Sequence record: OZ035799.1
From: Justusliebigvirus alia
Reading direction: 5' to 3' (one strand)
Length of the DNA stretch: 64,000 nt
Shown here: positions 6,708-41,565 of the stretch, piece by piece
Layout: each line of letters begins with the position of its first letter
How positions within the stretch are numbered: the first letter of the stretch is position 1
Notes under the pieces: generated by a model
The model's input: the letters and a program-made list of their open reading frames with translations, nothing else
The model's database searches: none
Told to the model about the DNA's origin: nothing
Program-made: the position numbers and the translations under genes

Positions 6708-6913
6708 ACCTCAATAAAGATGATAGCTTTTACCTATCAAAAACGTTCACCGAAAAAAGTGAATAGATCGCGGTATCGAGCTAATCAAGGAGCAGATGAA
6801 CAACCATACCATGAAGATCATAAGGCGCTTACAACGTGTTTTAGACCGCTTATTTTTAATTTCTTCATGCAACTATCTGGCAAAAACAGCCTTTTTCTTG
6901 TCTTTCCTCTTAA

Positions 6914-19845: not shown

Positions 19846-20067
19846 ATGTCTGTAGTTGTAGAAGGTAGTATTGGTTTCTTAGTAGATAACCCTCACCCTT
19901 TCGTGGTTAAGGTTCATATTCAAGAAAAGGTAAGCAACAATACGTGGTTGTGCTTGTTAGATAGTAAGATACACTCTTATACAGAGGTTTATCTTCACAC
20001 TTGGCAAATTGGTACGATAACAGCAGAGGATGAATTGATAATTGAACTATATGAACGAGATCTATAG
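19846..20067 (+). CDS. hypothetical protein (73 aa)
   Basis: RBS ATAGGAGG. Confidence 0.55.
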   Translation: MSVVVEGSIGFLVDNPHPFVVKVHIQEKVSNNTWLCLLDSKIHSYTEVYLHTWQIGTITAEDELIIELYERDL

Positions 20068-20148
20068 ATGACTTTATTAGAGAGTATTGTAGTGTTAATC
20101 ATCTTTATCGTTGTTGTCATAGGATATTTTACAGAAGACTAAAATAAA

Positions 20149-20179
20149 GCCCCTAGAAGCGATTCTAGGGGCTTTTGTT
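20149..20179. terminator. bidirectional terminator hairpin (GCCCCTAG-N7-CTAGGGGC + T-run) between convergent blocks
   Basis: 8-bp stem flanked by A-run and T-run. Confidence 0.7.
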
Positions 20180-20242
20180 TGCATTAGATAGGGAAACGTA
20201 TTACTAAAATAAAAAGTGCGTTAGAATGCGTTACAGGAGGTT

Positions 20243-20500
20243 TTAAGAATGCATAAAATCTTCTTCAGGGCAGGTTGAGAGATAAGAGATGCACGTTGGG
20301 ACAACAACAACATTATCTTTAAGGTTTGCAACCAAGCCTTTTGTAATTCCAGCCACTGCCCCGTTAATATCTGCTTGACGGATACCAAAACCTTGTTGTG
20401 CGGATAGATAACAAAATCCCTCACCTTTCTGTTGATTATTATTGAAGTAATAAACGTAGTGCATCATAAAATGGTCTTTAACGATTTGTTCTGTGGTCAT
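20243..20500 (-). CDS. hypothetical protein (85 aa)
   Basis: minus-strand ORF with RBS AGGAGAATATT. Confidence 0.55.
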   Translation of the reverse strand: MTTEQIVKDHFMMHYVYYFNNNQQKGEGFCYLSAQQGFGIRQADINGAVAGITKGLVANLKDNVVVVPTCISYLSTCPEEDFMHS

Positions 20501-20513
20501 AATATTCTCCTAT

Positions 20514-20536
20514 AAGAAAAGGGGCTTTCGCCCCTT
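20514..20536 (-). terminator. terminator hairpin GGGGCTTTCGCCCC (recurrent motif)
   Basis: identical hairpin also at 31806 and 44892. Confidence 0.6.
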
Positions 20537-20543
20537 GGTCAAG

Positions 20544-21356
20544 TTACTTAGTCAAATGATCTTCTATCATTTTTATGAAAGCAGGATTGCTAAAAGCATC
20601 TGCTGCCTTTTCTCTATAAACAAAGACTCCTCTATCTTCGTAAAGAAGAGTTTCTTCGTAATTAATTCCTGGGTTAACAACAATCATTTTTGTACCCATA
20701 CTAAGTGCAGGGAATAATTCCCAATTAAAATTGATAACTTGGTTTGAACATCCTACTACAACAACCAAATCTTGCATGGTCAAAGTATCAAACAAGTGAG
20801 CCATATCTGCATACAAAGGTGCAGCCTCACCAAAAAATACAACATTAGGCTTCACCCAATTATAATCATCTATGTTTATACTATTGTAACCAATGTCTAC
20901 CAGTGTTTTGTAATCTCCAGGATGCATACGGTAAACTACTTCAGGAAGATACCCGTGCACGTGAATAACAGAATCCCTGTCCACACCTGCTCGCTCTAGT
21001 AGATCATCAACGTTTGTTGTCAAGTTTACTACTTGGTTAGGATATTCCTTAAACCACTTTGCTATTTGAATATGTGCAGCATTAGGTTGTACATCTTTAA
21101 GCTCAACACGTCTTTTGTTATAAAATTCGTGTGTTTTGGCATACAAGTCCATACCGTTCTCGTCTACACCACCGACCACTGGAAGATCTGGTGATGTTCT
21201 CACACGATAACCTGCTTGGAAAGCTCCAATATCGCAGATCTCTTCTAAATCCCATTCTTCCCATAAGGCACGACCACTATCTGTGTCTGTTCGGAATGTT
21301 CGAATCCCACTGTCTGCACTTAAACCAGCTCCACTAACAAAAATTACTCTTCGCAT
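20544..21356 (-). CDS. Sir2-family (sirtuin-like) NAD-dependent protein lacking the zinc-ribbon module
   Basis: motifs GAGLSADSGIRTFR, QPNAAH, TTNVDDLLERAG, HVHG, VVFFGE; no CxxC pairs. Confidence 0.75.
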   Translation of the reverse strand: MRRVIFVSGAGLSADSGIRTFRTDTDSGRALWEEWDLEEICDIGAFQAGYRVRTSPDLPVVGGVDENGMDLYAKTHEFYNKRRVELKDVQPNAAHIQIAKWFKEYPNQVVNLTTNVDDLLERAGVDRDSVIHVHGYLPEVVYRMHPGDYKTLVDIGYNSINIDDYNWVKPNVVFFGEAAPLYADMAHLFDTLTMQDLVVVVGCSNQVINFNWELFPALSMGTKMIVVNPGINYEETLLYEDRGVFVYREKAADAFSNPAFIKMIEDHLTK

Positions 21357-21913
21357 TCAATATCCTCTTCGTAATCATCATCCCAAGAAGATGCATCGTA
21401 ACGCTCTTCCTCTTCGAAATCCCAATTAATTTCTACTCCAAAATCTAAAAACAATTTAACAATGTTTTCTGTAGAATAGTATTTATCATAAGCGTTAGCT
21501 AGTTCCCAATACTTGTCACTCAATTTTTTATAAGTAGGATCATTATAGTCATAATCTACTTTATAACCATAGTCATACATCTCTTGTTCAGCTTTAAGCA
21601 TAGCTTCTGGTGTAAGAAGATTAGGGAACGGACGATTTCTTTCTTTTAACTTAGAAGCGATCCAGTTTGCAACATTCACCACTTCACCATCTCGATTATC
21701 ACCTAAACAACTTGCATAATCTCCATCTTCGTAAGTGCCTAAATCCCCACTAACTTCATGTACAATAGACGAATACGATCCACACGTTTCACAATCTGAA
21801 AAAGTGTCTACTGTTGTAATATCAACAGATAAAACTGGTAAAGCCATAGCTTCTTTCACACAAGCCTCCTCATATAATAACATGTCATCAAAACCCATAT
21901 ATCCTCCAGACAA
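21344..21913 (-). CDS. acidic hypothetical protein (189 aa)
   Basis: ORF overlapping Sir2 start; D/E/Y-rich. Confidence 0.55.
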   Translation of the reverse strand: MSGGYMGFDDMLLYEEACVKEAMALPVLSVDITTVDTFSDCETCGSYSSIVHEVSGDLGTYEDGDYASCLGDNRDGEVVNVANWIASKLKERNRPFPNLLTPEAMLKAEQEMYDYGYKVDYDYNDPTYKKLSDKYWELANAYDKYYSTENIVKLFLDFGVEINWDFEEEERYDASSWDDDYEEDIECEE

Positions 21914-21953
21914 ATAAAGCCCCTGCTTGGGGGCTTTGGTTAAGTTTTACGGA

Positions 21954-22562
21954 TTATACCAGACTTTTAAGGTACTTGTCAAGGGCTTCTTGATCACCTT
22001 GACAAACATAGCAACGGAAGTCTTGAGCAGAAGGTTCTTTGTCTTCGTCCCAATCCCAATAGACAGTACCTTTATAGCGTGAACCTGGGAACTCGAAATA
22101 TGCTGTATGAGTAATATGATGTGGGCCACCCCAAAACTGTGTAAAAGTAAATTGAGGATACGCTGCTTTAACTGTATTTTCAAACCAAGTTTTACGATCT
22201 AATGCTTCGTTTATAAAATAAGCATGGCGTTCCATTTCATCCCAGTTTTTCCAAACGCATTTTTCATCCAGAGAAAAAACAAAATCTTCACTGTTGAATT
22301 CATCTGTATCTTCCAAAATATCATAATCATGTGCACTAGGTATCCACCATCCAGCTTCTAGTAGTGCTTTCACGGGTACAAAACCTTTTTCAGCATATTG
22401 ATCAAATTCTTTTACTCTACGTACAGTGCAGTATTCATCTTCACCACCAATGTCCAGTAGACAAGCACCTTTGCGTCTTGCTGCAAGACCATGTGTATCA
22501 AAAACTACAACACTACCTTCACCGTCTTCACGATCTACTTGATATGCAACTTTTTGAGTCAT
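21954..22562 (-). CDS. hypothetical protein (202 aa)
   Basis: long ORF, no motif recognised. Confidence 0.6.
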   Translation of the reverse strand: MTQKVAYQVDREDGEGSVVVFDTHGLAARRKGACLLDIGGEDEYCTVRRVKEFDQYAEKGFVPVKALLEAGWWIPSAHDYDILEDTDEFNSEDFVFSLDEKCVWKNWDEMERHAYFINEALDRKTWFENTVKAAYPQFTFTQFWGGPHHITHTAYFEFPGSRYKGTVYWDWDEDKEPSAQDFRCYVCQGDQEALDKYLKSLV

Positions 22563-22685
22563 ATTACCCCCAATGTATATGGGAAATTAACCAAAAGATA
22601 AATTCCCAAAAACACCAACCAAGAAAAGTTAATGGAATTATAAAAGCTATCAGAGCAGTCTTCCAGCCTTTCCACAATGTTTCCA

Positions 22686-23675
22686 CTATTCCTCCATACA
22701 TTTAAGAATATGTGCAATGACAGGTATAGTCCAACCGTTACCTAACATCTTATATGCTTGTGTATTACTACTCACTTTAAAGTAGTCATCTGGCACACCT
22801 TGCAAACGGCAACACTCTTTAACGGTTAACTTTCTATAATGTACGCCTTCACTCAATTTTTCAAAAGCATCTAAATATCTTCCAGGTGGAATGTAAGCTA
22901 ATAGTACGTCTTTCGGCACAGTCGTGAGGCAACGAGTTTTTTCACTGTCCTGAACTTCCAAACAATGTACCAAACGATCAGTTTTAGATGTACTACGTTT
23001 GCCATTTTCATTAATTCTACGCCCATATATTGCTGCTGGATAAAAAACCAGTTGTCTGCGACTCTTTTCAAAATACTGTTCTATATTACCACCTTTGGCA
23101 TAATTTGCATCTATGCAATAAGCCTTATCTCTGTCTACAATACTATCATCTTCAATGATATCTTGCAACACTTCATTGGTAATATCCCAGGGTTTTATTT
23201 CCCAGTTGCACCAGTATAAACGTTGTCTATTCTGTGCCGTGAAATCTGCGGAGTTAATGAATACGGGATCAACACCTAAGTAACTTGTGATCACGTTTTC
23301 CCACTCCACTTTCATCTTAACGTTTTCGAGCATGAACTTAACATTAGGGTTAAACTTTTTAATATGTTCAAGAATCTCAACATATTCGAAGAATAGCTTA
23401 GATCGCGGATCTTGAAAGTTCAAACCCTTACCAGAAGAAGAGAAGCCTTGACACGGACTACCACCTAACAAAAGATCAATTTCTCCCCACGGAATATCCC
23501 ATTCTCTCCATTTTGTAACATCGCCTAACTGAATAATATCTGGAAAATTTGCTTGGCTTTCAGCTATGGCGAATTTGTCTAATTCTGAAGCATAATATGT
23601 ATCTACTTCAATACCTGCACTTTTTAGCGCAAGCATTCCTCCTGACATACCATCAAAAAGACTTAAAACTTTCAT
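22686..23675 (-). CDS. DNA cytosine-5 methyltransferase
   Basis: motif I FDGMSGG, motif IV GSPCQGFS, motif VI ENV. Confidence 0.8.
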   Translation of the reverse strand: MKVLSLFDGMSGGMLALKSAGIEVDTYYASELDKFAIAESQANFPDIIQLGDVTKWREWDIPWGEIDLLLGGSPCQGFSSSGKGLNFQDPRSKLFFEYVEILEHIKKFNPNVKFMLENVKMKVEWENVITSYLGVDPVFINSADFTAQNRQRLYWCNWEIKPWDITNEVLQDIIEDDSIVDRDKAYCIDANYAKGGNIEQYFEKSRRQLVFYPAAIYGRRINENGKRSTSKTDRLVHCLEVQDSEKTRCLTTVPKDVLLAYIPPGRYLDAFEKLSEGVHYRKLTVKECCRLQGVPDDYFKVSSNTQAYKMLGNGWTIPVIAHILKCMEE

Positions 23676-24088
23676 TATTGCTTCTTCTCCTTAACACTAG
23701 CTGGTAATTCTGCCTTGAGGCAGAAGTTTAAACGGTAAGCCTCATTTTCATTTAAAAGTACAGATTCACACGATAACCAGAACAAGAGATCCTCAATACC
23801 AGGGCTGTTAAGCCAACAGTGCAGAAGAGAATGTTGTTCTATATCAATGTAATTTAGTAACAAGGCTTGTAAGGCGTAACTAGTTCCTGTCGTTTTTGCT
23901 TTTTCAAGGATGATATTGTGTTTACTAACAACTTTCTTCCTAAGACCAAACCATTTATTAACAACAACAGTCTCCTCTTGTAGTTGTTTTCTTATTTTCT
24001 CACATTCTTTAACTACAATCTGCATCTTATCCACTGCCGATTGAAGTTGTTCTTTTGTTGGGTTTACAAAATAATCACTATAATACAT
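23675..24088 (-). CDS. hypothetical protein (137 aa)
   Basis: ORF with RBS GAGGAG; own promoter. Confidence 0.6.
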   Translation of the reverse strand: MYYSDYFVNPTKEQLQSAVDKMQIVVKECEKIRKQLQEETVVVNKWFGLRKKVVSKHNIILEKAKTTGTSYALQALLLNYIDIEQHSLLHCWLNSPGIEDLLFWLSCESVLLNENEAYRLNFCLKAELPASVKEKKQ

Positions 24089-24114
24089 GCTAATCTCCTC
24101 TTCTGTTTTTCTGT

Positions 24115-24143
24115 AGTTTATTCGAAAAAACTGGTGTTGTCAA
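24115..24143 (-). promoter_or_regulatory. sigma70-like promoter on minus strand (TTGACA-N17-TAAACT)
   Basis: reverse-complement hexamers upstream of CDS start 24088. Confidence 0.5.
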
Positions 24144-24170
24144 CAAAAAACCCGCCGAAGCGGGTTTATA
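24144..24170 (-). terminator. rho-independent terminator (CCCGC-CGAA-GCGGG, T-run on minus strand)
   Basis: hairpin flanked by A6/T-run. Confidence 0.65.
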
Positions 24171-24428
24171 TTATTCTACAGGAACTTCTTCACCAAGAGA
24201 GACTTCTAAACGGAATGCTTTACTTTCAATACACTCACTACCTTTTAGAAAATCAAATTGCACTATAGACTGACTTAATAGGATAGATAGAATCACATCG
24301 CAATCTTCACTAGGAGCTAGATGTTTGTATTCTTCCTTCAAGGTAACATCATAAAAACATAAATCCCCTACTCCTAGTTCATCCCATCCTTCCCACGCAT
24401 CTACAAAGTTAAATTCTAAACCTTTCAT
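24171..24428 (-). CDS. hypothetical protein (85 aa)
   Basis: ORF. Confidence 0.5.
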   Translation of the reverse strand: MKGLEFNFVDAWEGWDELGVGDLCFYDVTLKEEYKHLAPSEDCDVILSILLSQSIVQFDFLKGSECIESKAFRLEVSLGEEVPVE

Positions 24429-24949
24429 ACAACCTCCTCGTAGTTGTTATTGTGTTTTACTGTCTCAACATACAATAAAGATTCCATCTGTAATACATTA
24501 CCAGAAATAATAAACCCATAGGCCATTTCAGATGTGTCTATATCATATGCCCCGTCTTCCGGTTTAGCAAAGTGTAAAACTATTTCATCTGGGTTTTCTT
24601 CATCCCATAGTTTAGAAATTTTCCGAACCAGAATGTTCGCTAAAATAGTTGACATTCGGGATAAAGCTGTATCCTCATATCTTTTAAAACCTAGCCAATA
24701 GAGGTTAAGAATTTCTACTTCTTCTTGTGTTAAGTTTTTGTCTAAAGTAATCAGATCTGTAGAGCACGGCGTTTTTGTTGAACCTACTGTTACAAAACCT
24801 GGGGTGTTATGAAAAACAATCTTAACTTTATCACGTATAAAGTTTAAACCTTGTGCCTCAACTATATATTGTATTGTAGGTACAATATCGTTTGTTACAT
24901 CAATAAAACTATCTTTAATGACGCTTATATTATTTCTGGACAAGACCAT
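24425..24949 (-). CDS. hypothetical protein (174 aa)
   Basis: ORF. Confidence 0.6.
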   Translation of the reverse strand: MVLSRNNISVIKDSFIDVTNDIVPTIQYIVEAQGLNFIRDKVKIVFHNTPGFVTVGSTKTPCSTDLITLDKNLTQEEVEILNLYWLGFKRYEDTALSRMSTILANILVRKISKLWDEENPDEIVLHFAKPEDGAYDIDTSEMAYGFIISGNVLQMESLLYVETVKHNNNYEEVV

Positions 24950-25508
24950 TCTCCTCTAAAATAGGCTTAATAAATTCGAAAATTTGTTTTTTACTTTTAC
25001 CTCGAATATTAAAACAAGGAACATTAAACTTTTTAGCCAACATCCAAGCTGTTCTTGTACCACCTAAAGGATCTCCATTTTTATCTGTATTTGCACAAGC
25101 TAAAAGAAAACAAGATGGTTTTGGATTCTCAAGATCTCTTCCAAGAACTTGGTGGATATTTCTTTGATGTAATTTTTTAGCACCTTGAGATAATCTGTCC
25201 CAAGCTGGATGCAATTCTTTTGCATATTGCAAGGTTAAAGCATAGTTTACACTATCTGGTCTATCAAGAACAATAACCTCTCCCTCTATCTCATTACCTT
25301 TAAACGAGAGCCAAGGAATGTATATTTCTTTCTTTGTATTGTTCCCACTCTCATATACCCCGCATTCAAATGCGGAATCTGCACCTTCTGCTTTACCAGA
25401 TCGCAAAATGAACCATGTAGATAACCATTTTGCAACAGATACCATAGTATCCCATTCTTCGTCTGTAATATCTCTGCTACCAACACCTGTGTAGAATAAA
25501 TCGCTCAT
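24930..25508 (-). CDS. DprA/Smf-like (SLOG-superfamily Rossmann) protein, putative
   Basis: N-terminal YTGVGSRDIT motif; start refined to MSDLFYTG with RBS AAGGAGAAAAC. Confidence 0.45.
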   Translation of the reverse strand: MSDLFYTGVGSRDITDEEWDTMVSVAKWLSTWFILRSGKAEGADSAFECGVYESGNNTKKEIYIPWLSFKGNEIEGEVIVLDRPDSVNYALTLQYAKELHPAWDRLSQGAKKLHQRNIHQVLGRDLENPKPSCFLLACANTDKNGDPLGGTRTAWMLAKKFNVPCFNIRGKSKKQIFEFIKPILEENGLVQK

Positions 25509-25518
25509 GGTTTTCTCC

Positions 25519-25839
25519 TTAACAAGTAATATTGGGAGTAACAATTGGATTAACAATTGGAGTGATAGGGTACGTAAACCAAGGGCTTCCAATTTCCCAA
25601 GGATTATAAGGTCTACGAGGATCAAATGGAGGAGTTACTTCAGGCTTTTTCCAAATCTCCGCTAGTTGTTTCTTCCATTTATCCCTTGCTGTCTCATTAT
25701 CTTCATCCAACTGTTCATCATTATCTTTTATTTCTGGTTTTGGAAATAAAAGCTCTTTGACTAACTCAACATCTTCCGTCTCAATAGTAGTTTCTTTCGT
25801 AAGTTCTCCTACTGTTTCTTTAATTGTGATTTTATACAT
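25519..25839 (-). CDS. hypothetical protein with Pro-rich C-terminus (106 aa)
   Basis: ORF. Confidence 0.5.
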   Translation of the reverse strand: MYKITIKETVGELTKETTIETEDVELVKELLFPKPEIKDNDEQLDEDNETARDKWKKQLAEIWKKPEVTPPFDPRRPYNPWEIGSPWFTYPITPIVNPIVTPNITC

Positions 25840-26585
25840 TAGTCCTCCTCTAAAGTAGAATAAAATTGTAACGTATTTGAATCATCAAAATATGCAAAGG
25901 TTAAATTACCATTGAAGCAAGATCCTGTGTCCATATATACCCTATTACTGCTAATTACAGGCTTAGGAACATAAGAATGCCCGTGAAATACATAATCTAC
26001 TCCTGAAACTCTAGGAAGAAGAATCCCTTCAAGTGCGCAATCTATCATATCACGATCCCACATTAAAGATTCTGTGAATCGAGAAACTTGCTCTTTATTC
26101 ATATTCAAACAAAATGGCAAAACTTCTGTCACTGGTAAATGTTCCAAAACTGAAGGATACCCACCGTGAATAAAGCCTAGTTTCATATTACGATAATTGA
26201 CAACAAGTACAACAGGTAAATCTTCTAGCATCAAAGCAAGAGCAGTTGCACCCTCTTCTCCACACTCGTCTAGAACTGTATGGCCTCCGTTCTGAAACCA
26301 ACATTCGTAATATCGTCTATCACCTTCTAGCAACCCTTTAATCATCATATCTTCATGATTTCCACGAATACCATAACGATTTAGCTTTCTGGTGAATTCA
26401 ACAACACAACGAAAATTCTGCTTGCCGCGATCTGTAAGATCTCCTAGAGATACAACAACATCTTGATCTCGGATACCTAAAGTATTAACACCTTTCTGGT
26501 ACAAATCAAAGCAACCATGTAAATCACCAATAATAAACAGGTCTTGATCATCTTTTACACTAATTTCTTGATATACTAACATCAA
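25839..26585 (-). CDS. Ser/Thr protein phosphatase (PPP-family metallophosphatase)
   Basis: motifs GDLHG, GDLTDRG, GNHE. Confidence 0.8.
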   Translation of the reverse strand: MMLVYQEISVKDDQDLFIIGDLHGCFDLYQKGVNTLGIRDQDVVVSLGDLTDRGKQNFRCVVEFTRKLNRYGIRGNHEDMMIKGLLEGDRRYYECWFQNGGHTVLDECGEEGATALALMLEDLPVVLVVNYRNMKLGFIHGGYPSVLEHLPVTEVLPFCLNMNKEQVSRFTESLMWDRDMIDCALEGILLPRVSGVDYVFHGHSYVPKPVISSNRVYMDTGSCFNGNLTFAYFDDSNTLQFYSTLEED

Positions 26586-26908
26586 CTCTCCTCAAAATCC
26601 ATAAGTATAAAGATATTAACTTTACCTTCTATATTATGTTCTACAACAAGATCTGCAAATTCTTTGTAGGCTTTTTCTTCTATTTGTTCAATGTGAGACG
26701 CTACATCTTTGTATATAGCGTCACCATCTACTTTAACAAGGAGGAATAGAGATCTTACTTCAATCTCTTTATTTTTACGGGGTAGAAAATCGACGGCTTC
26801 TTGTATACGCCAGCCGAGATACCCTGGAGTCCTTTGAATATCCTCCAAATGACTTTCTAAGATTTCCCTTCCTTTGTCTATTAAAGCCTGTTCTGTCGTT
26901 ATTTTCAT
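26582..26908 (-). CDS. hypothetical protein (108 aa)
   Basis: ORF. Confidence 0.55.
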   Translation of the reverse strand: MKITTEQALIDKGREILESHLEDIQRTPGYLGWRIQEAVDFLPRKNKEIEVRSLFLLVKVDGDAIYKDVASHIEQIEEKAYKEFADLVVEHNIEGKVNIFILMDFEES

Positions 26909-26918
26909 CCCCTTCTCC

Positions 26919-27491
26919 TTAATGTGTTAATGAAACTGCGTAGCTAAACACAGGTTCAGATATTACATCGGCTACAGTAATAAAAACGTCTTCGTCTTGA
27001 GTTGTTTCTACACGACATACAGTTACACCATTCACCACGAATTCAACGCAATGTGGAATATCTTCACAAACGAAGGTAGTGTAAGTAACACCCAAAGCAT
27101 CATACAAAGATTTAACAGTGTTTGCAAGTGCCGCAGTTTCTTCTTTTTCTGAGACAATGAATGCTGTAACAACAAGATTGTTTGCATAGTTTAGACTGTC
27201 CTCTATAGCCAATGATTTACAAGGTAGTAATGCAAAATATTTACCTGGTTTAATCAGACCTGCTTCCCATTGATTCAAAATTGCCTGGGATGGTTTAGTA
27301 ATATAAAACAGATTTTCACTTGGGTTATCAATATTACTTCTGGCGATACAACGTGAAGGATTATTAATATCAAATACATGATCAAAATCTACACAAACAG
27401 GTAAACTGAAAGGTGTGAATTTTTTACCTAATAATCCTATGGCTGATAATATGTTTGCTGTGCTTATCTTCCCGTTAAAAGCTAAACGCAT
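26919..27491 (-). CDS. hypothetical protein (190 aa)
   Basis: ORF. Confidence 0.6.
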   Translation of the reverse strand: MRLAFNGKISTANILSAIGLLGKKFTPFSLPVCVDFDHVFDINNPSRCIARSNIDNPSENLFYITKPSQAILNQWEAGLIKPGKYFALLPCKSLAIEDSLNYANNLVVTAFIVSEKEETAALANTVKSLYDALGVTYTTFVCEDIPHCVEFVVNGVTVCRVETTQDEDVFITVADVISEPVFSYAVSLTH

Positions 27492-27502
27492 ATTTAACTC
27501 CT

Positions 27503-27706
27503 TTAACTAGCAACCGTAACTTCCGAACTTTCTTCTTTCGTACTGTCTACGATATGCCTGGTGGCAATATACGAGACTTGCCAGTTACCATCTGGTGTAG
27601 TCTCAATAAGTACCCTATCTACTTCGAGAAAATGCAAAAATTCAACCATCGCTCGCTTCGATAGGAATTGTTTTTTAACAGTCTCCTCAAAAGATTGAAC
27701 TGCCAT
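27503..27706 (-). CDS. hypothetical protein (67 aa)
   Basis: ORF. Confidence 0.5.
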   Translation of the reverse strand: MAVQSFEETVKKQFLSKRAMVEFLHFLEVDRVLIETTPDGNWQVSYIATRHIVDSTKEESSEVTVAS

Positions 27707-27715
27707 GTTTCCTCC

Positions 27716-28378
27716 TTATTTAATATTCAATTTTGCACAAAGACGTTGTACCGCTTTGGCATCGAACAAACTCCCACGAATAGTTCTCTTTCCTGATTCA
27801 TTCAGATGCTTTGCAATCGTCATATATGGCGTTCTACAAGCTCTGTATGCAACTAAAGAATCTTTTAAAGAAAGCGCAAACTCTCTTGAGCGTTTTGCTT
27901 CTTCCGTTTTCGTATAATCTGTTCTTTTGTATTTAGGGTTTGCTGCACCAAGAAGCGTTCCCTTCGCTTTTGCTACCTTAAGGCTCTTCTTAACACGATC
28001 AGATATTGCACGAGCCTCTTCTTCTGCCAGAACTGCTAAAATATTTATTATCATATTTTCAGCGGAGGGCATAGTTGCAATCCGTACATTAATCATCTCT
28101 AACAAGGTTGCAACAGAAGCTGTGTTACGTCCAAGACGGTCAACCTTAGCAACAACAAGTGTAGCACCTGTTTCTTTGCAAAGATTAACAGCTTTTACAA
28201 GCTCTCTACGTTGCTTCCAATCGCCTTTACCAGAATAAAACTCTGCAAAGCTACCTACAATAGTATAATTTTCTTGTGAATCCAGGAAGCGTTGGATATC
28301 TGCTTCCTGTGATTCTATACCATACTGGTTGCCTTGTTGTTTCTTCTTAGAAAGTCGATGATACAGTACAAACTTCAT
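27716..28378 (-). CDS. small serine recombinase (resolvase/invertase family) with C-terminal HTH
   Basis: N-terminal YHRLSKKKQ...GIESQ and LVVAKVDRLGRN motifs. Confidence 0.75.
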   Translation of the reverse strand: MKFVLYHRLSKKKQQGNQYGIESQEADIQRFLDSQENYTIVGSFAEFYSGKGDWKQRRELVKAVNLCKETGATLVVAKVDRLGRNTASVATLLEMINVRIATMPSAENMIINILAVLAEEEARAISDRVKKSLKVAKAKGTLLGAANPKYKRTDYTKTEEAKRSREFALSLKDSLVAYRACRTPYMTIAKHLNESGKRTIRGSLFDAKAVQRLCAKLNIK

Positions 28379-28435
28379 AATACCCTCCTGTTCTGTTGCA
28401 GGAAGTATGCACTACCTTAATGTTAAAGTCAACAG

Positions 28436-28651
28436 TTAAGTAGTGGTAATATCATCCTCTTGAATAGCAGGGTCAACTTCTGCAAAGATAGCCTCTACAG
28501 GAATTTCTTCACCTGCTATTCTAGAAAGAAGCACTGAACCAATAGCTTTTGCGTGTTCTTCGGATTCCGCATAAACATTAGTTCCTGTGTCTTTTTTCTT
28601 AGTTTCGTTAAAATATACCAGATAGTAATTGTATGCCATTATTCTTCCCAA
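28436..28651 (-). CDS. hypothetical protein (71 aa)
   Basis: ORF. Confidence 0.5.
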   Translation of the reverse strand: MGRIMAYNYYLVYFNETKKKDTGTNVYAESEEHAKAIGSVLLSRIAGEEIPVEAIFAEVDPAIQEDDITTT

Positions 28652-28890
28652 TCGTTGTTACGAGCACTTTCAAGAACCTTGACAACTTCTGCATACTCTA
28701 CAGCTAAACCAGCACACACTTCAGCTTGTTTTGCAATTGCTTGTTTAAAGAACATAGCGATTGCAACACTCTGTGTTGTGTGAATGTTATCTGCTTTAGT
28801 TGATACATGAAGATCAAAATCTTCTTCATCAAAGGTGAGTTCCATAGTAACAATAAATTTCTCGGTCATAAAAATGCTCCTCTTAAACAA
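28639..28890 (-). CDS. hypothetical protein (83 aa)
   Basis: ORF. Confidence 0.5.
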   Translation of the reverse strand: MFKRSIFMTEKFIVTMELTFDEEDFDLHVSTKADNIHTTQSVAIAMFFKQAIAKQAEVCAGLAVEYAEVVKVLESARNNDWEE

Positions 28891-29392
28891 AATAGAAAGG
28901 TTGAGTTAAACCCAGCCTGTTTTTTGGGTCGTAGACGTACCAAGCATATGCTGTCTTGTCAGTACCACCTGCAACAAAAGATGGTCGTTCAGAAAGAACG
29001 ATCAAATTTGTTGGTGGATTCTGTTTATGGAATTCCCTTCGTTTAATAGACTCTAGGAACCCAAGACGCAACAAGTATATGCAAACGTCTGCTTCTTTTA
29101 AGCTCTTTTGCAAGAACTCAAGTGCAAGTCTGAATGGTGGATTTGTGATTATAATATCCGGCTTAGTATGCCATTCGTGGTTAAAATAATCCTTCCCTTC
29201 TTCTAACTCACAATATTCTGATCCTTCTGGAAAATGTTGATAAATTGCAGCAGCAGCGCCTTTACACGGTTCTGCAAAAATAAAACCTTCTTCTTTAAGG
29301 TTATTAAAATCTATTACACTAAATAATGCATTTATACATTTTTGTGGAGTAGGATAGTAATCAGTTGGTGGACGATCATACTTATTTGCCAC
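28883..29392 (-). CDS. SAM-dependent methyltransferase, probable DNA N6-adenine/N4-cytosine type
   Basis: IITNPPF catalytic motif, DYYPTP N-terminal motif. Confidence 0.55.
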   Translation of the reverse strand: MANKYDRPPTDYYPTPQKCINALFSVIDFNNLKEEGFIFAEPCKGAAAAIYQHFPEGSEYCELEEGKDYFNHEWHTKPDIIITNPPFRLALEFLQKSLKEADVCIYLLRLGFLESIKRREFHKQNPPTNLIVLSERPSFVAGGTDKTAYAWYVYDPKNRLGLTQPFYFV

Positions 29393-29810
29393 TACTTAAA
29401 ATCTCCTCTTTTGTGATTTCAGGGTCTTCTTCAAAAACCATAATATCTCTTAAGAACGTTAATTCTTCCATAGATACTGGTATTGTATCTTCTTCTGTTT
29501 TTCGTTTACATAAATCGTCAAGAAAGTTTTTAAAGTTTTCTGACAAATCATAAAATTTCAACAGTTGATAATCACAGGAGGAGATCCTATCTAGTTCTAA
29601 CATTCTTTCTAAGATATTTTCTGTGTTGCCGTACAACACACGAACTTCTCCAAAAGGGTTGACTGAATATTGTGAAGTTCTGAACCATCCCTTTTTAGAT
29701 ACAGTGTAACGCTGTTCTGCTAAACTTTCAATAAAATTTTTAGCTCTTTTACAGTTTTGTTCTAAAGAGTAGTAGGCTTTTTCTACAAAGGTTACAGGTA
29801 CTGGTAACAT
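29382..29810 (-). CDS. hypothetical protein (142 aa)
   Basis: ORF. Confidence 0.55.
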   Translation of the reverse strand: MLPVPVTFVEKAYYSLEQNCKRAKNFIESLAEQRYTVSKKGWFRTSQYSVNPFGEVRVLYGNTENILERMLELDRISSCDYQLLKFYDLSENFKNFLDDLCKRKTEEDTIPVSMEELTFLRDIMVFEEDPEITKEEILSSGK

Positions 29811-29852
29811 ATCTCCTCCTAATAACCCCCCTTGAAGGGGGTTTATACTAGA

Positions 29853-30506
29853 TTAATTATCAGAGGACACTTTATCAAGTTTTTCAGAGACTGTCAATAC
29901 TTTTTCTTGTGATTCTTTCATTTCTGCTAAAATACTTTCAGCTTCATCACTATCAGGATCACCAGTCAACAGCATACTAATTAGTTGCTCCTTGCTGAAG
30001 TTCAGAATATCTTCCGCTGTTAGCTCCAGTTGTTCTTCGATCTCTTCGATAAAAGTTTCACCGCCGGAAAAAGCATCTCGTAGTTTTGCAACTTCCATCG
30101 CTTCTTCTGGAGTTGCCCCTGCATCTAAAGCTGCTAAAGCAAAATCTGCCCCACTACCAACAGCATAATAATCTTCAGTTAAAGGATATGCTCGCGTGGG
30201 ATTATTACCCTCGTGCATATAAATTTTACCGTCTGGGTGAACAACCAATGCCACAAACTCTTCATCTTCTTTATCAGGATCTGACTGGATCACCAAACCT
30301 GGGATTGTCTCTTGTGCTGCTTGGCATTGTAAGTTTTGTTCGAACCAAGAAAAGAAAGTCAGGATAGAAGACAGACGTCCTGCACCACCAACAAGGTAAT
30401 CCCCAATTTTACGCACTTTCTTGAAATTTAAAGTGTCTACACGACTACCTACTGTTACTTTACCGTCAGACAGAATTTTGTTACGTGTTGCAATAATTGT
30501 TGTCAT
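29853..30506 (-). CDS. HslV/ClpQ-like N-terminal-nucleophile peptidase (proteasome beta-subunit fold) with acidic C-terminal extension
   Basis: starts MTTIIA (Thr2 nucleophile after Met), KKVRK, AVGSGADFALAALDAG resembling HslV GSGG region. Confidence 0.7.
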   Translation of the reverse strand: MTTIIATRNKILSDGKVTVGSRVDTLNFKKVRKIGDYLVGGAGRLSSILTFFSWFEQNLQCQAAQETIPGLVIQSDPDKEDEEFVALVVHPDGKIYMHEGNNPTRAYPLTEDYYAVGSGADFALAALDAGATPEEAMEVAKLRDAFSGGETFIEEIEEQLELTAEDILNFSKEQLISMLLTGDPDSDEAESILAEMKESQEKVLTVSEKLDKVSSDN

Positions 30507-30997
30507 TGTACTTCCTCCTGTAGTGTTTTAAGGACTGCTTTACCACCGCTTACATATTTACGGAGGTAATCAATAGCTCTTAGTGTTTCTTTATCCACAA
30601 GAATTTTATTAGTTCTTGTTAGTGGATGATTTAGTAAATCACTGCAATTTCTTACTAACATAGATTTCTTGTGAAAGATACTGCTAAGAAAAAGAAGTTT
30701 AGAATCTTCTTCATCAATCAGGAGTAATTCTGAATTAGACCCAGCTATATTTATTATACACTCAAACAAGCCTTCTTGACTATCAGATAATTCCTGGTAA
30801 TATTTAGTTAGCCAATCCTCGCCTTTTAACCAACTAAAAAACATCTGAACTTTTTGCAAAGTTGTCATGTTCTCTAAACGAAGAGATATTTCTTTTTCAA
30901 TCTTGTCAATATAAATCTGTCTAAACTCATTCGGCTTAACTAAGCCAGCTTGATAGCATTCATCAATACCATTGCGATCAATCTCAATTAGCGTCAT
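30503..30997 (-). CDS. hypothetical protein (164 aa), translationally coupled to HslV-like gene
   Basis: ORF overlapping downstream start by 4 nt. Confidence 0.6.
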   Translation of the reverse strand: MTLIEIDRNGIDECYQAGLVKPNEFRQIYIDKIEKEISLRLENMTTLQKVQMFFSWLKGEDWLTKYYQELSDSQEGLFECIINIAGSNSELLLIDEEDSKLLFLSSIFHKKSMLVRNCSDLLNHPLTRTNKILVDKETLRAIDYLRKYVSGGKAVLKTLQEEVQ

Positions 30998-31033
30998 TTA
31001 ACCTCCATAACAGGCATCCTTGCCTTGTAATTA

Positions 31034-31786
31034 TTAATATACTTCCGTAATGAACTGAGACAAACGGGAACGTTGGTTATCAGCAGTTGTCATTTCAACA
31101 TAACCAATAAAATCCACAATAGCTTCCCTTTCTCCTTCTTCATTAATAGGAACAACACGATCTAACAAATCACCTAACCCGTTAGCTCTTCGTTTAATTG
31201 CATATGTTTGATTAACATCACCCATAATGACAATACGTGTATTAAGACCTGCTCGCTCAAGGAGAAGTTTTACTGTATTTGGTGACATAAGTTGAACTTC
31301 ATCAATAAGAATAATGCTGTTATCCCACGTAGCACCTAGTGCATAGTTTGGAATATTAAGTTCAATTTTGCCACTTGCAATATCGTTTTCCAATTTATTT
31401 GCAGTCATAAACTGTTGGAAAATTCTTTTAGTTGATTCATAGTGTGCTGCTAGTTTATCAGTCTTATCTCCAGATAAGAAACCAATTTGATCATCACCTA
31501 CTTCTGTCGGGTTTTTAAGGAAAATCAACTTTCTGAAATCACCAGCTTTAAGCATTTGCAATGCTTTCCATAGTGCTGTTGTTGTTTTTCCTGTTCCTGC
31601 TGGGGCATTAACAATGGTTAAATCATTCCAAACCATGCTTCTTACAATAGCTTCTTGATTCCCAACAGGGGTAAATTCATCAAGACGGTAATCATCATTT
31701 CCTACTGCTTTAGCCGCATAACGACTGGCACGTTTGTCATCATTGGCTGCTGATTGACGACGAGCCTTTGCGGTTTTGTTTCCCAT
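31034..31786 (-). CDS. phoH: PhoH-like ATPase
   Basis: Walker A NAPAGTGKTT and PhoH-like length/architecture. Confidence 0.8.
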   Translation of the reverse strand: MGNKTAKARRQSAANDDKRASRYAAKAVGNDDYRLDEFTPVGNQEAIVRSMVWNDLTIVNAPAGTGKTTTALWKALQMLKAGDFRKLIFLKNPTEVGDDQIGFLSGDKTDKLAAHYESTKRIFQQFMTANKLENDIASGKIELNIPNYALGATWDNSIILIDEVQLMSPNTVKLLLERAGLNTRIVIMGDVNQTYAIKRRANGLGDLLDRVVPINEEGEREAIVDFIGYVEMTTADNQRSRLSQFITEVY

Positions 31787-32485: not shown

Positions 32486-32752
32486 TTACTCCGCAATCTG
32501 AGCCATGAATTCACGTAGTTCAGAAAAACCTCCTACGTGGGTTAGCTGTTCACCATCTTCCACAAAAATCTGAGGAAATGTGCGTGGTAGAACACCTGTT
32601 TTCTCTAAAACCAGATTCTGAATCTGATCTAAAGAATAGTCTTCATCTAAGGTAAGATATTTAAAATCCTGTTCACGCTGTTCTAGTAGAATCTTAGCGT
32701 TAGTGCAGAAAGGACAATTTGGTTTACCGTAGATAATAAAATTCATTTTCAC
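32486..32752 (-). CDS. glutaredoxin-like protein (NrdH/Grx-type)
   Basis: CPFC active-site motif in IYGKPNCPFC. Confidence 0.75.
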   Translation of the reverse strand: MKMNFIIYGKPNCPFCTNAKILLEQREQDFKYLTLDEDYSLDQIQNLVLEKTGVLPRTFPQIFVEDGEQLTHVGGFSELREFMAQIAE

Positions 32753-33579
32753 TCCTTGTTTAAAAGTATAGTTAAAGTTCTTACAATACCGCTATCAACA
32801 CTTCGCGGATTTAAAGTAGGATCTGTTTTTAAATAAGATGTTGCTGGTCTGACTGCTTTGGAATTATAGGTTGAAGCAGATACAGGATTAACTGTAACAG
32901 ATAAATCTATAACAAGAAATATCTTTCGTGCAAAATCATACCAAGAAATATAATCTGCACCTGCATAGTGTACAATTTTACTATTTACACCATCTTTTAC
33001 AAGTTTAAAAATTGTTTCTGCAAGATCAGGTGCATAAGTAGGACATGACAAATGATCACATACTACATTAAATTCTTTTTGACCACCGTTGTAGCGTTCC
33101 AACATAGTTTTCAAAAAGTTATGTCCAAATTCACTATAAACAGAAGCTGTTCTGATAATAAGTGCTGTAGGACAAACTGTTTGTACTAAAGTTTCACCTA
33201 ATTGTTTACTGTAACCGTAGGTGTTCAAGGGGTTTGTTTTACTATCTTCTGTGCCAGCAACACGCCCATCAAAAACATAGTCTGTTGAAATATGTACAAA
33301 CTGTATCAGTAAATCATTACATGCTTTGGCAATGTTTGTTGCACCGTATGCATTAACATTTATACAGGTGTTAACATCTTCTTCAGCTTTATCTACTGCC
33401 GTGTAAGCCGCACAATTCACAACAACATCAGGCACATGCTGTACAAGACTATTCATAACATCTTTAAAGTTGGTAATGTCTACATCACTTGCTTCAATCA
33501 AAATAACATCTTCGGGCGCAACTTTTGCCAAAGACTGTCCTAATTGACCTTTTGAACCAAAGATTAAAAATTTTGTCAA
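32749..33579 (-). CDS. rmlD: dTDP-4-dehydrorhamnose reductase
   Basis: Rossmann N-terminus FGSKGQLG and RmlD-like length; operon with rmlBAC. Confidence 0.75.
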   Translation of the reverse strand: MTKFLIFGSKGQLGQSLAKVAPEDVILIEASDVDITNFKDVMNSLVQHVPDVVVNCAAYTAVDKAEEDVNTCINVNAYGATNIAKACNDLLIQFVHISTDYVFDGRVAGTEDSKTNPLNTYGYSKQLGETLVQTVCPTALIIRTASVYSEFGHNFLKTMLERYNGGQKEFNVVCDHLSCPTYAPDLAETIFKLVKDGVNSKIVHYAGADYISWYDFARKIFLVIDLSVTVNPVSASTYNSKAVRPATSYLKTDPTLNPRSVDSGIVRTLTILLNKE

Positions 33580-34130
33580 AATATGATCTCCTTTAGTGTT
33601 TTGGCTTGCTGATCTTTTTGTGACAAGATAGGTTTAAAATTAATATCATTAAAGATTAAATCAAAACCCCAATCAATATTGATATCTGGATCATTCCACG
33701 CAAGACTACATTCTGAAGTCGGATCGTAATATTCTGTACATTTATATTCAAAATCAGCAATGTCACTAATCACAACAAAGCCATGAGCGAAACCAGGAGG
33801 AATCCAAAATTGTGTTTTATTCTTTTCAGATAAGAGAACACCTACCCATTCTCCAAATGTTGGACTACCAACCCTAATATCTACAGCAACATCATAAACT
33901 TCACCACGAACACAACGTACTAACTTCCCTTGTGGGTTTTTCTTTTGAAAATGAAGCCCACGTAGAACTCCTCGAATAGAACGTGAATGGTTATCTTGGA
34001 CAAAGTTTTGTTTACCTATGTATTGATCATATAAAGCCTGATTAAAACTTTCTAAGAAAAAACCACGTTCATCTCCGTAAACGTCAGGTTGAATGATCAA
34101 CAAATCTTCGATTTTTGTTGCTTGAATCAT
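33576..34130 (-). CDS. rmlC: dTDP-4-dehydrorhamnose 3,5-epimerase
   Basis: motifs RGFFLESF, FVQDNHS, GVLRGLHFQ. Confidence 0.85.
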   Translation of the reverse strand: MIQATKIEDLLIIQPDVYGDERGFFLESFNQALYDQYIGKQNFVQDNHSRSIRGVLRGLHFQKKNPQGKLVRCVRGEVYDVAVDIRVGSPTFGEWVGVLLSEKNKTQFWIPPGFAHGFVVISDIADFEYKCTEYYDPTSECSLAWNDPDINIDWGFDLIFNDINFKPILSQKDQQAKTLKEIIF

Positions 34131-34142
34131 TTAATCTCCCCT

Positions 34143-35012
34143 TTATTTTAATTTAAGTAAATACTTGCCGTAGTCTGTTTTACTTAAAACCTCTCCAGAA
34201 CTTTTTACGGAATCTAAAGTAATCCATTCATTTTTAAAAGCAATCTCTTCCAGGCATGCAACCTTCATACCTTGTTGCTTTTCTATTGCATGAACAAATT
34301 GAGATGCTTCCATAAGACTTTCATGTGTCCCTGTATCCAGCCAAGTGAAACCTCTTCCTAGTTTACAGACACGTAAAGCCTTTTCTTTCCAGTACATCTC
34401 ATTTATATCTGTAATCTCTAACTCCCCTCTAGCAGAAGGTTTAACGCTTTTAGCTTTCTGTATAACAGAATTATCGTAAAAGTACAAGCCTGTGATTGCA
34501 TAGTTGCTTTTTGGTGCTTTTGGTTTTTCTTCAATACTCACCACTGTACCTTCAGAATCAAACTCAACAACACCAAATCTTTCAGGATCATTTACGTGAT
34601 ACCCAAAAATATTAGCTCCACCATTCTTCTCAATATGTTCTTTAGCAGAATCTAAAATGCTACCAAAACTCTGACCAAAGAATAAATTATCACCTAGCAC
34701 AAGTGCTACAGAATCTTCACCAATAAAGTTCTCACCAATAATAAATGCTTCTGCTAAACCTTTTGGGCTGTTCTGTACTGCATACTGTAGGGAAATACCA
34801 AAAGAAGAACCATCACCTAGGAGATTTACAAAATTAATTTGATCTTCTGGTGTTGTAATTATTAGTATTTCCCTAATTCCAGAAAGCATTAGGACAGAGA
34901 GTGGATAATAAATCATAGGCTTATCGTAAATTGGTAATAGTTGTTTACTAACCCCTTTAGTAACTGGGTAAAGTCTTGTTCCACTACCACCTGCTAAGAT
35001 AATACCTTTCAT
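34143..35012 (-). CDS. rmlA: glucose-1-phosphate thymidylyltransferase
   Basis: N-terminus [39 protein letters not shown] nearly identical to bacterial RmlA. Confidence 0.9.
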
Positions 35013-35020
35013 ACTCCTCC

Positions 35021-40785: not shown

Positions 40786-40796
40786 TTCCTCTCCTA

Positions 40797-41468: not shown

Positions 41469-41565
41469 AAATTCTCCTTCTCTCTTTTAAGGAGAGCATA
41501 GCTCTCCTAACGTTAGCCTATACTACACGAATCTCAATTAAAAGTCAACTATAATTTTAAGTTGA

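Follow-up and report, generated by a model that had tools for sequence, protein, structure and literature searches.

The minus-strand gene block at positions 20243-30997 of the Justusliebigvirus alia record OZ035799.1 (a stretch of 64,000 nucleotides, here called the window, from whose first letter all positions are counted) is, as judged by comparison with related phage genomes, a subfamily-conserved module and not an island. An original prediction had described it as an accessory island enriched in nucleic-acid- and protein-modifying enzymes, possibly acting in counter-defence or host takeover; the block proved to be conserved and syntenic across the genus Justusliebigvirus and the subfamily Stephanstirmvirinae, with 22261-24377 as its only variable part. 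It is likely, in a reading we hold with good confidence, that the region is a conserved, largely dispensable block of auxiliary enzymes that forms the promoter-distal third of a leftward non-structural cluster and is made up of individually useful genes for host tuning or DNA modification. This reading starts from the identity of the block, from catalytic motifs that are intact and from a gene order conserved across the subfamily, all of which are observed in the sequences.

A sequence search found window positions 20000-31500 to be 100% identical to J. alia OZ035770.1, and phage phi92 (NC_023693) carries the same genes in the same order, with 98.5% DNA identity to the block. Phi92 and about 50 other phi92-like Escherichia coli myoviruses match 20000-31500 over its full length at 97-99% identity; overall, 60 records match at 95% identity or more, and 51 of these cover at least 80% of the 11.5-kb query in one continuous place, with the exceptions among the matches listed being due to record ends or to three small indels. 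When the region was divided into 500-base tiles, identity to phi92 and to the BASEL phage EmilieFrey was 94-99.8%, the same as in the flanks, and the GC (guanine plus cytosine) content of 0.35-0.38 is also that of the rest of the window. A search for repeats flanking the block returned only terminator hairpins, and there are no flanking tRNA genes, the tRNA genes being 28 kb away. Five records labelled ‘Campylobacter phage’, with Campylobacter jejuni as host (MG065639, MG065645, MG065656, MG065689 and one more), show 97.6% identity over the whole 11.5 kb; these labels are probably wrong, or the isolates are contaminants.

The phi92 and EmilieFrey annotations cover the same minus-strand stretch as gp037-gp059, so the gene block in question was in the databases already. 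It is known at the annotation level, with near-identical product names in more than 50 GenBank records since publication of the phi92 genome, and nothing substantive distinguishes it from phi92 gp037-gp059 or from the same block in BASEL phages Bas60-62, the present sequence being another isolate of the same genus. The GenBank product names are Sir2, DNA methyltransferase, DprA-like, NinI-like phosphatase, ‘histidyl tRNA synthetase’, DNA invertase, a second methyltransferase and HslV-family peptidase. The genes for these products, and a neighbor of the peptidase gene, are as follows.

20544-21356, minus strand: gp038, CobB-like sirtuin of 270 amino acids (Pfam SIR2, E=2.8e-22; PDB CobB 1s5p, E=6e-18; NCBIfam deacylase models)
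22686-23675, minus strand: gp043, C5 cytosine DNA methyltransferase of 329 amino acids (Pfam DNA_methylase PF00145 over residues 1-327, E=1.4e-43)
24930-25508, minus strand: gp047, stand-alone SLOG/DprA-like Rossmann protein of 192 amino acids (PHROG 768, E=1e-59; no Pfam match)
25839-26582, minus strand: gp049, PPP-family Ser/Thr phosphatase of 247 amino acids, like lambda NinI, PrpA and PrpB (Pfam Metallophos, E=3e-13)
26919-27491, minus strand: gp051, truncated class II aminoacyl-tRNA-synthetase-like fold of 190 amino acids (phrog_4806; Foldseek on the predicted model)
27716-28378, minus strand: gp053, small serine recombinase of the resolvase/invertase type, 220 amino acids (Pfam Resolvase PF00239, E=8e-22; phrog_125; Ser10 in YHRLS)
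28883-29392, minus strand: gp056, predicted small NPPF DNA methyltransferase (amino-methyltransferase type) of 169 amino acids (PHROG 799, E=1.7e-56)
29853-30506, minus strand: gp058, HslV-like N-terminal-threonine peptidase of 217 amino acids (Pfam Proteasome, E=1.6e-5; PDB HslV 1m4y, E=5e-8; NCBIfam HslV models)
30503-30997, minus strand: gp059, 164 amino acids, stop overlapping the HslV start (phrog_14834; 67% identity in phAPEC8, 39% in FBKp34)

The seven domain calls made originally (Sir2, C5 methyltransferase, DprA/SLOG, PPP phosphatase, serine recombinase, NPPF methyltransferase and HslV-like peptidase) all hold, and all seven genes lie on the minus strand. The count of 12 unknown open reading frames (ORFs) needs correction: 22 minus-strand ORFs were counted within 20243-30997, and 15 of them lack a named domain. 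Every ORF except gp042 has a PHROG family match and most have a Shine-Dalgarno sequence; Pfam and NCBIfam searches gave no match for the ORFs without a named domain, and a scan of 19-33 kb against Rfam gave no RNA family.

Conservation extends beyond the genus. Phage phAPEC8, of the sister genus Phapecoctavirus, has homologs of 19 of the 22 genes, 18 of which are collinear, with the recombinase gene elsewhere. In a window-wide comparison based on one crude ATG-only ORF set, with a phAPEC8 homolog required to cover at least half of the ORF length, homologs were found for 23 of 55 ORFs (42%; median identity 48%) in the plus-strand early block (1-20.2 kb), for 18 of 21 (86%; median identity 58%) in the flagged region, where the ATG-only caller missed the small methyltransferase gene gp056 (86% identical), and for 22 of 24 (92%; median identity 73%) in the downstream nucleotide-metabolism block. 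The divergent Klebsiella phage FBKp34 retains PhoH, gp059, HslV, the phosphatase, the DprA-like protein, the small methyltransferase and the recombinase. The unclassified Vibrio phage qdvp001 and Aeromonas phage 2L372D have lysozyme, PhoH and HslV genes in the same order, with a DprA-like gene also nearby in 2L372D. The original prediction had set its island against a region that is conserved, syntenic and composed of clear housekeeping genes; conservation and synteny were both found, and clear housekeeping roles for the genes were not.

In phages rV5 and PVP-SE1, too, PhoH is followed by a protease and then by the small methyltransferase, but the HslV slot holds a ClpP-like enzyme; PVP-SE1 has a DprA-like gene there as well. 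The arrangement of PhoH, a small ORF, a compartmentalizing protease and a small NPPF methyltransferase was located at 39374-42272 in rV5, at 2958-6794 in PVP-SE1 and at 28883-31786 in the window. A self-compartmentalizing peptidase lies between PhoH and the small methyltransferase in all of these phages, and its family differs by phage subfamily, being ClpP-like in the Vequintavirinae and HslV-like in the Stephanstirmvirinae. ClpP-like and HslV-like proteases alternate at this one position by non-homologous replacement, with the Vibrio and Aeromonas relatives having the HslV-like type, and this conserved order with a swapped protease type is a modest new point.

Variation is concentrated in one methyltransferase cassette, in which the C5 methyltransferase gene is accompanied by four other ORFs.

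21954-22562, minus strand: gp041, 202 amino acids (phrog_8514; 68% identity to phAPEC8 gp195), N-terminal half inside the JohannJBalmer deletion
22564-22701, minus strand: gp042, hydrophobic ORF of 45 amino acids and a doubtful gene (no PHROG or Pfam match; ‘bad prodigal statistics’ in the phi92 record)
23675-24088, minus strand: gp044, 137 amino acids (phrog_16551; 25% identity to phAPEC8 gp193)
24171-24428, minus strand: gp045, 85 amino acids (phrog_4991; 44% identity to phAPEC8 gp187)

The BASEL phage JohannJBalmer is without window positions 22261-24377 (~2.1 kb), a deletion that removes most of gp045, a terminator/promoter pair, gp044, the C5 methyltransferase gene, gp042 and the N-terminal half of gp041. 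At the same spot, between homologs of gp041, gp044 and gp045, phAPEC8 carries a different, smaller annotated ‘methyltransferase’ that Pfam does not recognize, a DUF7275/DUF7277 protein and four small ORFs. The C5 methyltransferase is absent from phAPEC8, rV5 and PVP-SE1, and among phage records its identity is either at least 95% (54 records) or at most 52%, with nothing between; because of this gap, its pattern is one of acquisition at the genus level. Flanking the cassette are a terminator/promoter pair (24115-24167) on one side and a promoter/hairpin pair (21916-21982) on the other.

Large lytic phages, in the concept developed for the T4 superfamily, have a conserved core and a plastic (‘hyperplastic’) periphery that includes morons. 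Genes gp041-gp045 resemble such elements in having their own terminator and promoters, in being lost or replaced between close relatives and in carrying a methyltransferase as cargo; unlike hyperplastic regions, the other ~9 kb of the block is collinear across the subfamily. On these sequence features the cassette behaves like a moron and is the only truly variable part of the block, and its delimitation is a modest new point. Within the genus, the tile containing gp041 is the least conserved (94-96%). As a separate observation, gp041 (21954-22562) has 97.7% DNA identity in the Phapecoctavirus phages vB_EcoM_REC, ESCO5 and ECML-183-2, in which the rest of the region is too diverged for megablast; this sequence similarity suggests a recent inter-genus exchange beside the variable cassette.

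Two other indels were found. Phages muut and BME3 have an HNH endonuclease-like gene inserted between the sirtuin gene and gp039, and in one VEcB record a deletion takes out gp059 and joins PhoH to what is left of HslV, its C-terminal part, with another VEcB record being intact. The deletions show that the cassette, as well as HslV, gp059 and part of PhoH, are dispensable in the laboratory.

The reading as an auxiliary-enzyme block holds that most of the enzymes may be phage versions of host regulatory or housekeeping enzymes, acting in deacylation (like CobB), dephosphorylation (like PrpA/PrpB and lambda NinI) and proteolysis (like HslV), and that alongside them are a Dcm-type cytosine methyltransferase, a small amino-methyltransferase, a SLOG domain that may bind nucleotides or single-stranded DNA, a serine recombinase and a putative minimal class II aminoacyl-tRNA-synthetase-fold protein, with short lineage-specific ORFs interspersed. 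With these enzymes the phage would tune the infected cell by altering the acylation, phosphorylation and proteolysis of host proteins, the methyltransferases would methylate phage DNA to evade particular restriction enzymes, and the genes would act as individually useful accessories and not as one machine, with expression probably coming from several short units at the far end of the non-structural cluster.

The sirtuin illustrates the likeness to host enzymes. Gp038 has the NAD (nicotinamide adenine dinucleotide)-binding GAGxS...GIxxFR motif as GAGLSADSGIRTFR at residue 9, the catalytic histidine (HG) at 134 and FGE at 175, features it has in common with E. coli CobB and with the sirtuins of T5 and of KVP40-like Vibrio phages, and CobB is its closest solved structure. 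It differs from CobB in the zinc-ribbon cysteines, since no CxxC occurs anywhere in gp038 and none faces the aligned CobB segment, a zinc-less state like that of the KVP40 and phiSt2 sirtuins, which also are without these cysteines (PMC5107563). The coexistence of a sirtuin with phage NAD salvage has been described in Vibrio phages (PMC5107563). In contrast to the C5 methyltransferase, this sirtuin is present in 982 phage records, with matches ranging from 100% to below 60% identity.

Gp049 has the motifs GDLHG, GDLTDRG and GNHE at residues 19, 47 and 74; its best NCBIfam matches are PRK11439 and PRK09968 (PrpA/PrpB models), with scores under the equivalog cut-offs, and its identity is 75% to phAPEC8 gp183 and 48% in FBKp34. 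In gp058 the N-terminus, MTT, aligns to position 1 of the TIGR03692 profile and GSG occurs at residue 117, again with scores under the equivalog cut-offs. The threonine nucleophile and GSG are common to gp058 and bacterial HslVU, whereas an acidic C-terminal extension of about 70 residues is specific to gp058. HslV-like peptidases occur in 166 phage records, among them phages of Vibrio, Aeromonas and Shewanella, and no HslU-like ATPase turned up among the window ORFs that were annotated or scanned here. In the relatives, a gene without assigned function fills the slot upstream of HslV that gp059 occupies, and gp059 has no detectable similarity to the same-position genes of the Vibrio and Aeromonas phages. 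The annotation of an Aeromonas phage hinted that gp059 is a second proteasome-like subunit; this candidate was rejected, as gp059 has neither similarity to the Aeromonas/Vibrio gene nor a Pfam match.

A more ambitious form of host tuning, which is improbable, is that the zinc-less sirtuin, the PrpA/PrpB-like phosphatase, the HslV-like peptidase with its neighbor gene, the SLOG protein and the aminoacyl-tRNA-synthetase-fold protein, all conserved in the subfamily, work in coordination early in infection to rewire the post-translational regulation and NAD-linked signaling of the host. NAD-derived immune signals might, for instance, be bound or destroyed by the SLOG protein, with phage NAD salvage supplying the sirtuin, or the HslV-like peptidase might borrow host HslU, a conjecture, to remove stress or defense regulators. 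If this were true, any one of these activities would be a new phage mechanism of counter-defense or takeover.

The two methyltransferases bear on a role in evading restriction. Gp043 scores above the cut-off of TIGR00675 and its PC, ENV and QNRQR catalytic motifs are intact. In gp056, NPPF stands at residue 84, and PCKGAA, at residue 42, is a candidate motif I; searches of Pfam, NCBIfam and PDB sequences gave no match, the PADLOC match to MTase_II is weak, and the identity of gp056 is 86% in phAPEC8, 48% to rV5 gp118 and 50% in FBKp34. Like the orphan anti-restriction methyltransferases of other phages, gp043 (C5) and gp056 (amino) stand alone without a cognate nuclease, with catalytic motifs that are intact in gp043 and candidate in gp056 and, for the C5 enzyme, a patchy distribution; unlike those enzymes, in phi92-like phages no protection was seen against the EcoRI, EcoRV, EcoP1, EcoKI and EcoCFT systems.

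Published plating data bear directly on the proposal that the block is a counter-defense island, in which the sirtuin, SLOG protein, phosphatase, methyltransferases and small ORFs would neutralize immunity by consuming or sequestering NAD-derived signals, reversing defense kinases and methylating restriction sites. Phi92-like phages, described as ‘exceptionally susceptible’ to restriction-modification systems, form no plaques on hosts with EcoRI, EcoRV, EcoP1 or Fun/Z (PMC8594841), and these include phages with the full block. EmilieFrey (Bas61), in which the block is intact, and JohannJBalmer (Bas62), in which the cassette is deleted, behave alike within ~2-4 fold on 11 immunity systems, plating at ~0.1-0.4 on EcoKI, 0.06-0.4 on EcoCFT_II and ~1 on RexAB, PifA, Old and Tin (PMC8594841). 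Therefore, the block gives no broad protection, and five genes can be lost without visible cost on K-12.

The premise that several of these domains are building blocks of bacterial defense systems also turned out to be weak, holding only at the superfamily level. A pooled PADLOC scan of the 22 proteins gave methyltransferase models only, among the matches listed (25 of 59 families), and in individual scans of 10 proteins only the small methyltransferase matched (MTase_II, weakly), with no match for the SLOG protein, the phosphatase, the recombinase, HslV or the five unassigned ORFs that were scanned individually, and a match at chance level (0.0066) for the sirtuin. The sirtuin, phosphatase and peptidase are nearest CobB, PrpA/PrpB and HslV, and NCBIfam places the sirtuin with housekeeping deacylases, CobB-like and not like the NADases ThsA or DSR. 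Superfamily folds are common to the block and to the defense effectors ThsA, DSR1/2, SIR2-HerA and ShosA, with the SLOG domain of ThsA and ShosA among the fold matches of gp047; unlike these Sir2 and SLOG effectors, gp038 and gp047 are single-domain proteins without sensor or effector partners and match no PADLOC profile.

What speaks for counter-defense is that the methyltransferases match PADLOC methyltransferase models, that the C5 slot is swapped or lost between lineages, that the SLOG fold occurs also in ThsA and ShosA, that natural deletions show part of the block to be dispensable, that many small ORFs are unassigned, and that NAD salvage, a MazG/Atd1-like gene and an RNA-repair set occur elsewhere in the same phage. 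Swapping at the methyltransferase slot is the pattern that would be expected from an arms race with restriction enzymes. Against this stand the confinement of PADLOC matches to the methyltransferases, the CobB-like sirtuin, the plating results of the full-block and cassette-deleted phages, and a block that is conserved and not variable. As an explanation of the block as a whole, counter-defense is unlikely, and for restriction systems it is weakened, although the block may still act on immune systems other than the 11 plated; of the original idea of host takeover or counter-defense, what stands is that the functions are non-structural and probably host-directed or DNA-modifying, and what does not is broad restriction protection, which the published plating did not show.

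The sole anti-defense gene reported for Justusliebigvirus is Atd1, a MazG-like pyrophosphatase that acts against TIR. The window encodes a MazG-like (PRA-PH family) nucleotide pyrophosphohydrolase at 48498-49220 on the minus strand, outside the region, and this gene is likely the Atd1 counterpart.

Because Pfam gave no support to it, the DprA/SLOG call was tested separately. Gp047 has numerous homologs, a few of which carry PF02481, and GSR and SGxAxGxD motifs are invariant across 44 of them. Its AlphaFold model (predicted local distance difference test, pLDDT, 96.5) has Helicobacter pylori DprA (5mll, E=1e-5) as best solved match in Foldseek, followed by the Moco carrier protein (MCP), LOG, YpsA, ShosA and the SLOG domain of ThsA, with LOG, MCP and YpsA nearly as good as DprA, and there are weak profile matches to five DprA structures. 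The full DprA architecture is absent, gp047 being a single domain of 192 amino acids compared with 280-380 residues for the longer solved DprA chains. On the basis of this predicted model, gp047 is best filed under the SLOG superfamily and not as a DprA ortholog.

Gp051 matches class II aminoacyl-tRNA synthetases in fold, with Foldseek hits to PylRS, PheRS-alpha and Bll0957 at probability 1.0 and TMq 0.55-0.60 (model mean pLDDT 76); its most conserved residues (C33-F40, R51-N53 and E59-Y63) fall in loops that are poorly placed by the model. A full-size class II core is absent, the 190 amino acids of gp051 comparing with 250-320 in the matched cores, and there was no sequence-profile match to any aminoacyl-tRNA synthetase. 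The family is very small and found only in phages (28 clusters at 90% identity); an exhaustive hidden Markov model search of 1.84 billion representative proteins gave 12 clusters at 50% identity, all of phage-sized stand-alone proteins, and its remote relatives provided no link to a known system. Sequence searches of PDB with gp047, gp051 and gp056 found nothing significant. Fold-level support from predicted models for the SLOG (gp047) and synthetase-like (gp051) calls is a modest new point. Both gp039 and gp051 are labeled as aminoacyl-tRNA synthetases in BASEL records, and they were considered as paralogs; no relationship was found between them.

The DprA match bears on another proposal, that the block is a housekeeping module for DNA transactions, serving the phage's own DNA metabolism and not host manipulation. 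The DprA-like protein would load a recombinase onto single-stranded DNA, intermediates of replication or concatemers would be resolved by the serine recombinase, methylation would mark DNA to control its replication or packaging, and replication would be supported by PhoH, HslV and the phosphatase. The block directly continues a same-strand cluster for nucleotide metabolism and replication (ribonucleotide reductase, ThyX, exonucleases, ligase and RdgC), DprA is the best fold match of gp047, and the enzymes are conserved across the subfamily. However, gp047 is a bare Rossmann domain with nearly equal matches elsewhere, the recombinase gene lies at a different locus in phAPEC8 and FBKp34, viable isolates exist that have lost HslV, gp059 and part of PhoH, or the C5 methyltransferase, and the sirtuin, phosphatase and peptidase have no obvious DNA role. 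We regard this proposal as unlikely.

The gp053 homologs at other loci are phAPEC8 gp216, in the plus-strand early block, and FBKp34 gp002. This resolvase/invertase-type enzyme has its catalytic serine and its genomic position varies between genera, which would be in keeping with a switch or mobile cassette in which the recombinase inverts or excises part of the region, as Gin, Cin and Hin do. A search within 19-33 kb for inverted or direct repeats that could be crossover sites gave only terminator hairpins, all close relatives have a single orientation over the full 11.5 kb, and the observed indels are not beside the recombinase gene; such a switch is very improbable and already largely refuted.

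Several points weigh against the auxiliary-enzyme reading itself. The literature searched holds no expression or functional data on genes of the block, with annotation-level mentions only of the block or of phage sirtuins, and because of this ‘host manipulation’ is read from homology. Some of the 15 of 22 ORFs without an assignable function could be anti-defense proteins, and conservation across the subfamily is compatible with a counter-defense role. Dispensability in two natural deletions is also predicted by accessory function. Finally, the map of transcription units is a prediction only, because promoter-like sites are not above chance overall.

The internal terminators and promoters of the original prediction do exist, in that terminator-like hairpins are enriched (16 observed, 6.2 +/- 2.8 expected); promoter-like sites are not above chance overall (44 observed, 40 +/- 6.4 expected). 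The best-scoring promoter-like sites lie on the coding strand, at the borders between genes or close to them (21982-21953, 24143-24115, 28432-28404 and 29897-29869). With its predicted internal terminators and sigma-70-like promoters, the block would consist of about five or six short transcription units; the promoters predicted for these lie at 31962, 29897, 28432, 24143 and 21982 and the terminators at 31822, 24167, 21937, 20536 and 20175. The main elements are listed below.

20146-20175, both strands: bidirectional terminator hairpin with a 13-bp stem, at the meeting point of the convergent plus-strand early block and minus-strand block
20519-20536, minus strand: terminator hairpin AAGGGGCGAAAGCCCCTT between the Sir2 gene and gp037, one of three identical copies in the window (the others at 31804 and 44891)
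21916-21982, minus strand: perfect sigma-70 consensus promoter (TTGACA-18-TATAAT, extended TG), then a GC-rich hairpin, upstream of gp039
24115-24167, minus strand: terminator (24167-24148), then promoter-like site TTGACA-17-TAAACT (24143-24115), at the upstream edge of the variable cassette
28404-28432, minus strand: promoter-like site TTGACT-17-CATACT in the gap upstream of the recombinase gene
29827-29897, minus strand: promoter-like site TTGACA-17-TAAAGT with TG inside the 3' end of the HslV gene, then a hairpin, upstream of gp057

The 18-base terminator found near both ends of the block is no boundary marker, because a copy occurs also at 44.9 kb. At 21916-21982 and 29827-29897 on the minus strand, a strong sigma-70-like promoter is followed within ~10-25 bases by a GC-rich hairpin and then by the ribosome-binding site of the next gene, and transcription from the promoter would run directly into the hairpin; in these promoter-then-hairpin pairs the hairpin could be a stabilizing 5' stem-loop, an attenuator, or a terminator of upstream transcription that overlaps the promoter.

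The useful outcome of this analysis is a negative one, that the region should not be treated as a variable anti-defense island, and the plasticity of the window lies in the plus-strand early block and one methyltransferase cassette of ~2 kb. As it stands the block matters little, because its product names have been carried since the phi92 publication. Their very broad host range makes phi92-like phages interesting for therapy, so the lack of methyltransferase protection against common restriction systems and the presence of several dispensable enzymes are of practical relevance. The roles of the phage sirtuin, SLOG protein, HslV-like peptidase and synthetase-like protein are questions common to many other large phages.

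The remaining ORFs of the block are as follows.

20243-20500, minus strand: gp037, 85 amino acids (phrog_15991, E=4e-52; 47% identity to phAPEC8 gp198, in syntenic position)
21344-21898, minus strand: gp039, acidic, 184 amino acids (phrog_9509; 36% identity to phAPEC8 gp196)
24425-24949, minus strand: gp046, 174 amino acids (phrog_8569; 31% identity to phAPEC8 gp186)
25519-25839, minus strand: gp048, 106 amino acids (phrog_15301; 37% identity to phAPEC8 gp184)
26582-26908, minus strand: gp050, 108 amino acids (phrog_15398; 74% identity to phAPEC8 gp182)
27503-27706, minus strand: gp052, 67 amino acids (weak phrog_27804 match; no phAPEC8 homolog)
28436-28639, minus strand: gp054, 67 amino acids (phrog_15892; 66% identity to phAPEC8 gp179)
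28639-28869, minus strand: gp055, 76 amino acids (phrog_14731; 41% identity to phAPEC8 gp178)
29382-29810, minus strand: gp057, 142 amino acids (phrog_15078; 46% identity to phAPEC8 gp176)

The BASEL records label gp039 as a ‘putative aaRS’ (aminoacyl-tRNA synthetase); the protein has no Pfam, NCBIfam or PADLOC match.

Other parts of the window hold genes related to these subjects. The truly plastic part of the window is 1-20200 on the plus strand, with ~55 small ORFs, and this early block is a better candidate if an anti-defense or takeover ‘island’ exists here. On the same strand, at 56072-58770, a phosphoribosyl-pyrophosphate (PRPP)-synthetase-like protein (Pribosyltran/Pribosyl_synth) adjoins a Nampt/NAPRTase-family protein, with PVP-SE1 homologs gp96 and gp95; the two look like a pair for NAD salvage, which would matter for the phage sirtuin as well as for host defenses that deplete NAD. 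At 51275-53165 on the minus strand, a T4-type RNA ligase 1, a P-loop kinase (AAA_33) and a metallophosphoesterase are encoded side by side and conserved in rV5 and PVP-SE1; by analogy with T4, which counters anticodon nucleases in this way, they look like a set for RNA (tRNA) repair.

Immediately upstream of the region, at 32749-36010 on the minus strand, are four genes that are annotated in phi92 and phAPEC8 as a deoxythymidine diphosphate (dTDP)-rhamnose pathway (reductase, 3,5-epimerase, glucose-1-phosphate thymidylyltransferase and dehydratase/epimerase). A ‘putative dTDP glycosylation machinery’ has been noted in these phages, yet without restriction protection (PMC8594841). The plus strand also carries an array of 15 tRNA genes at 59517-62140.

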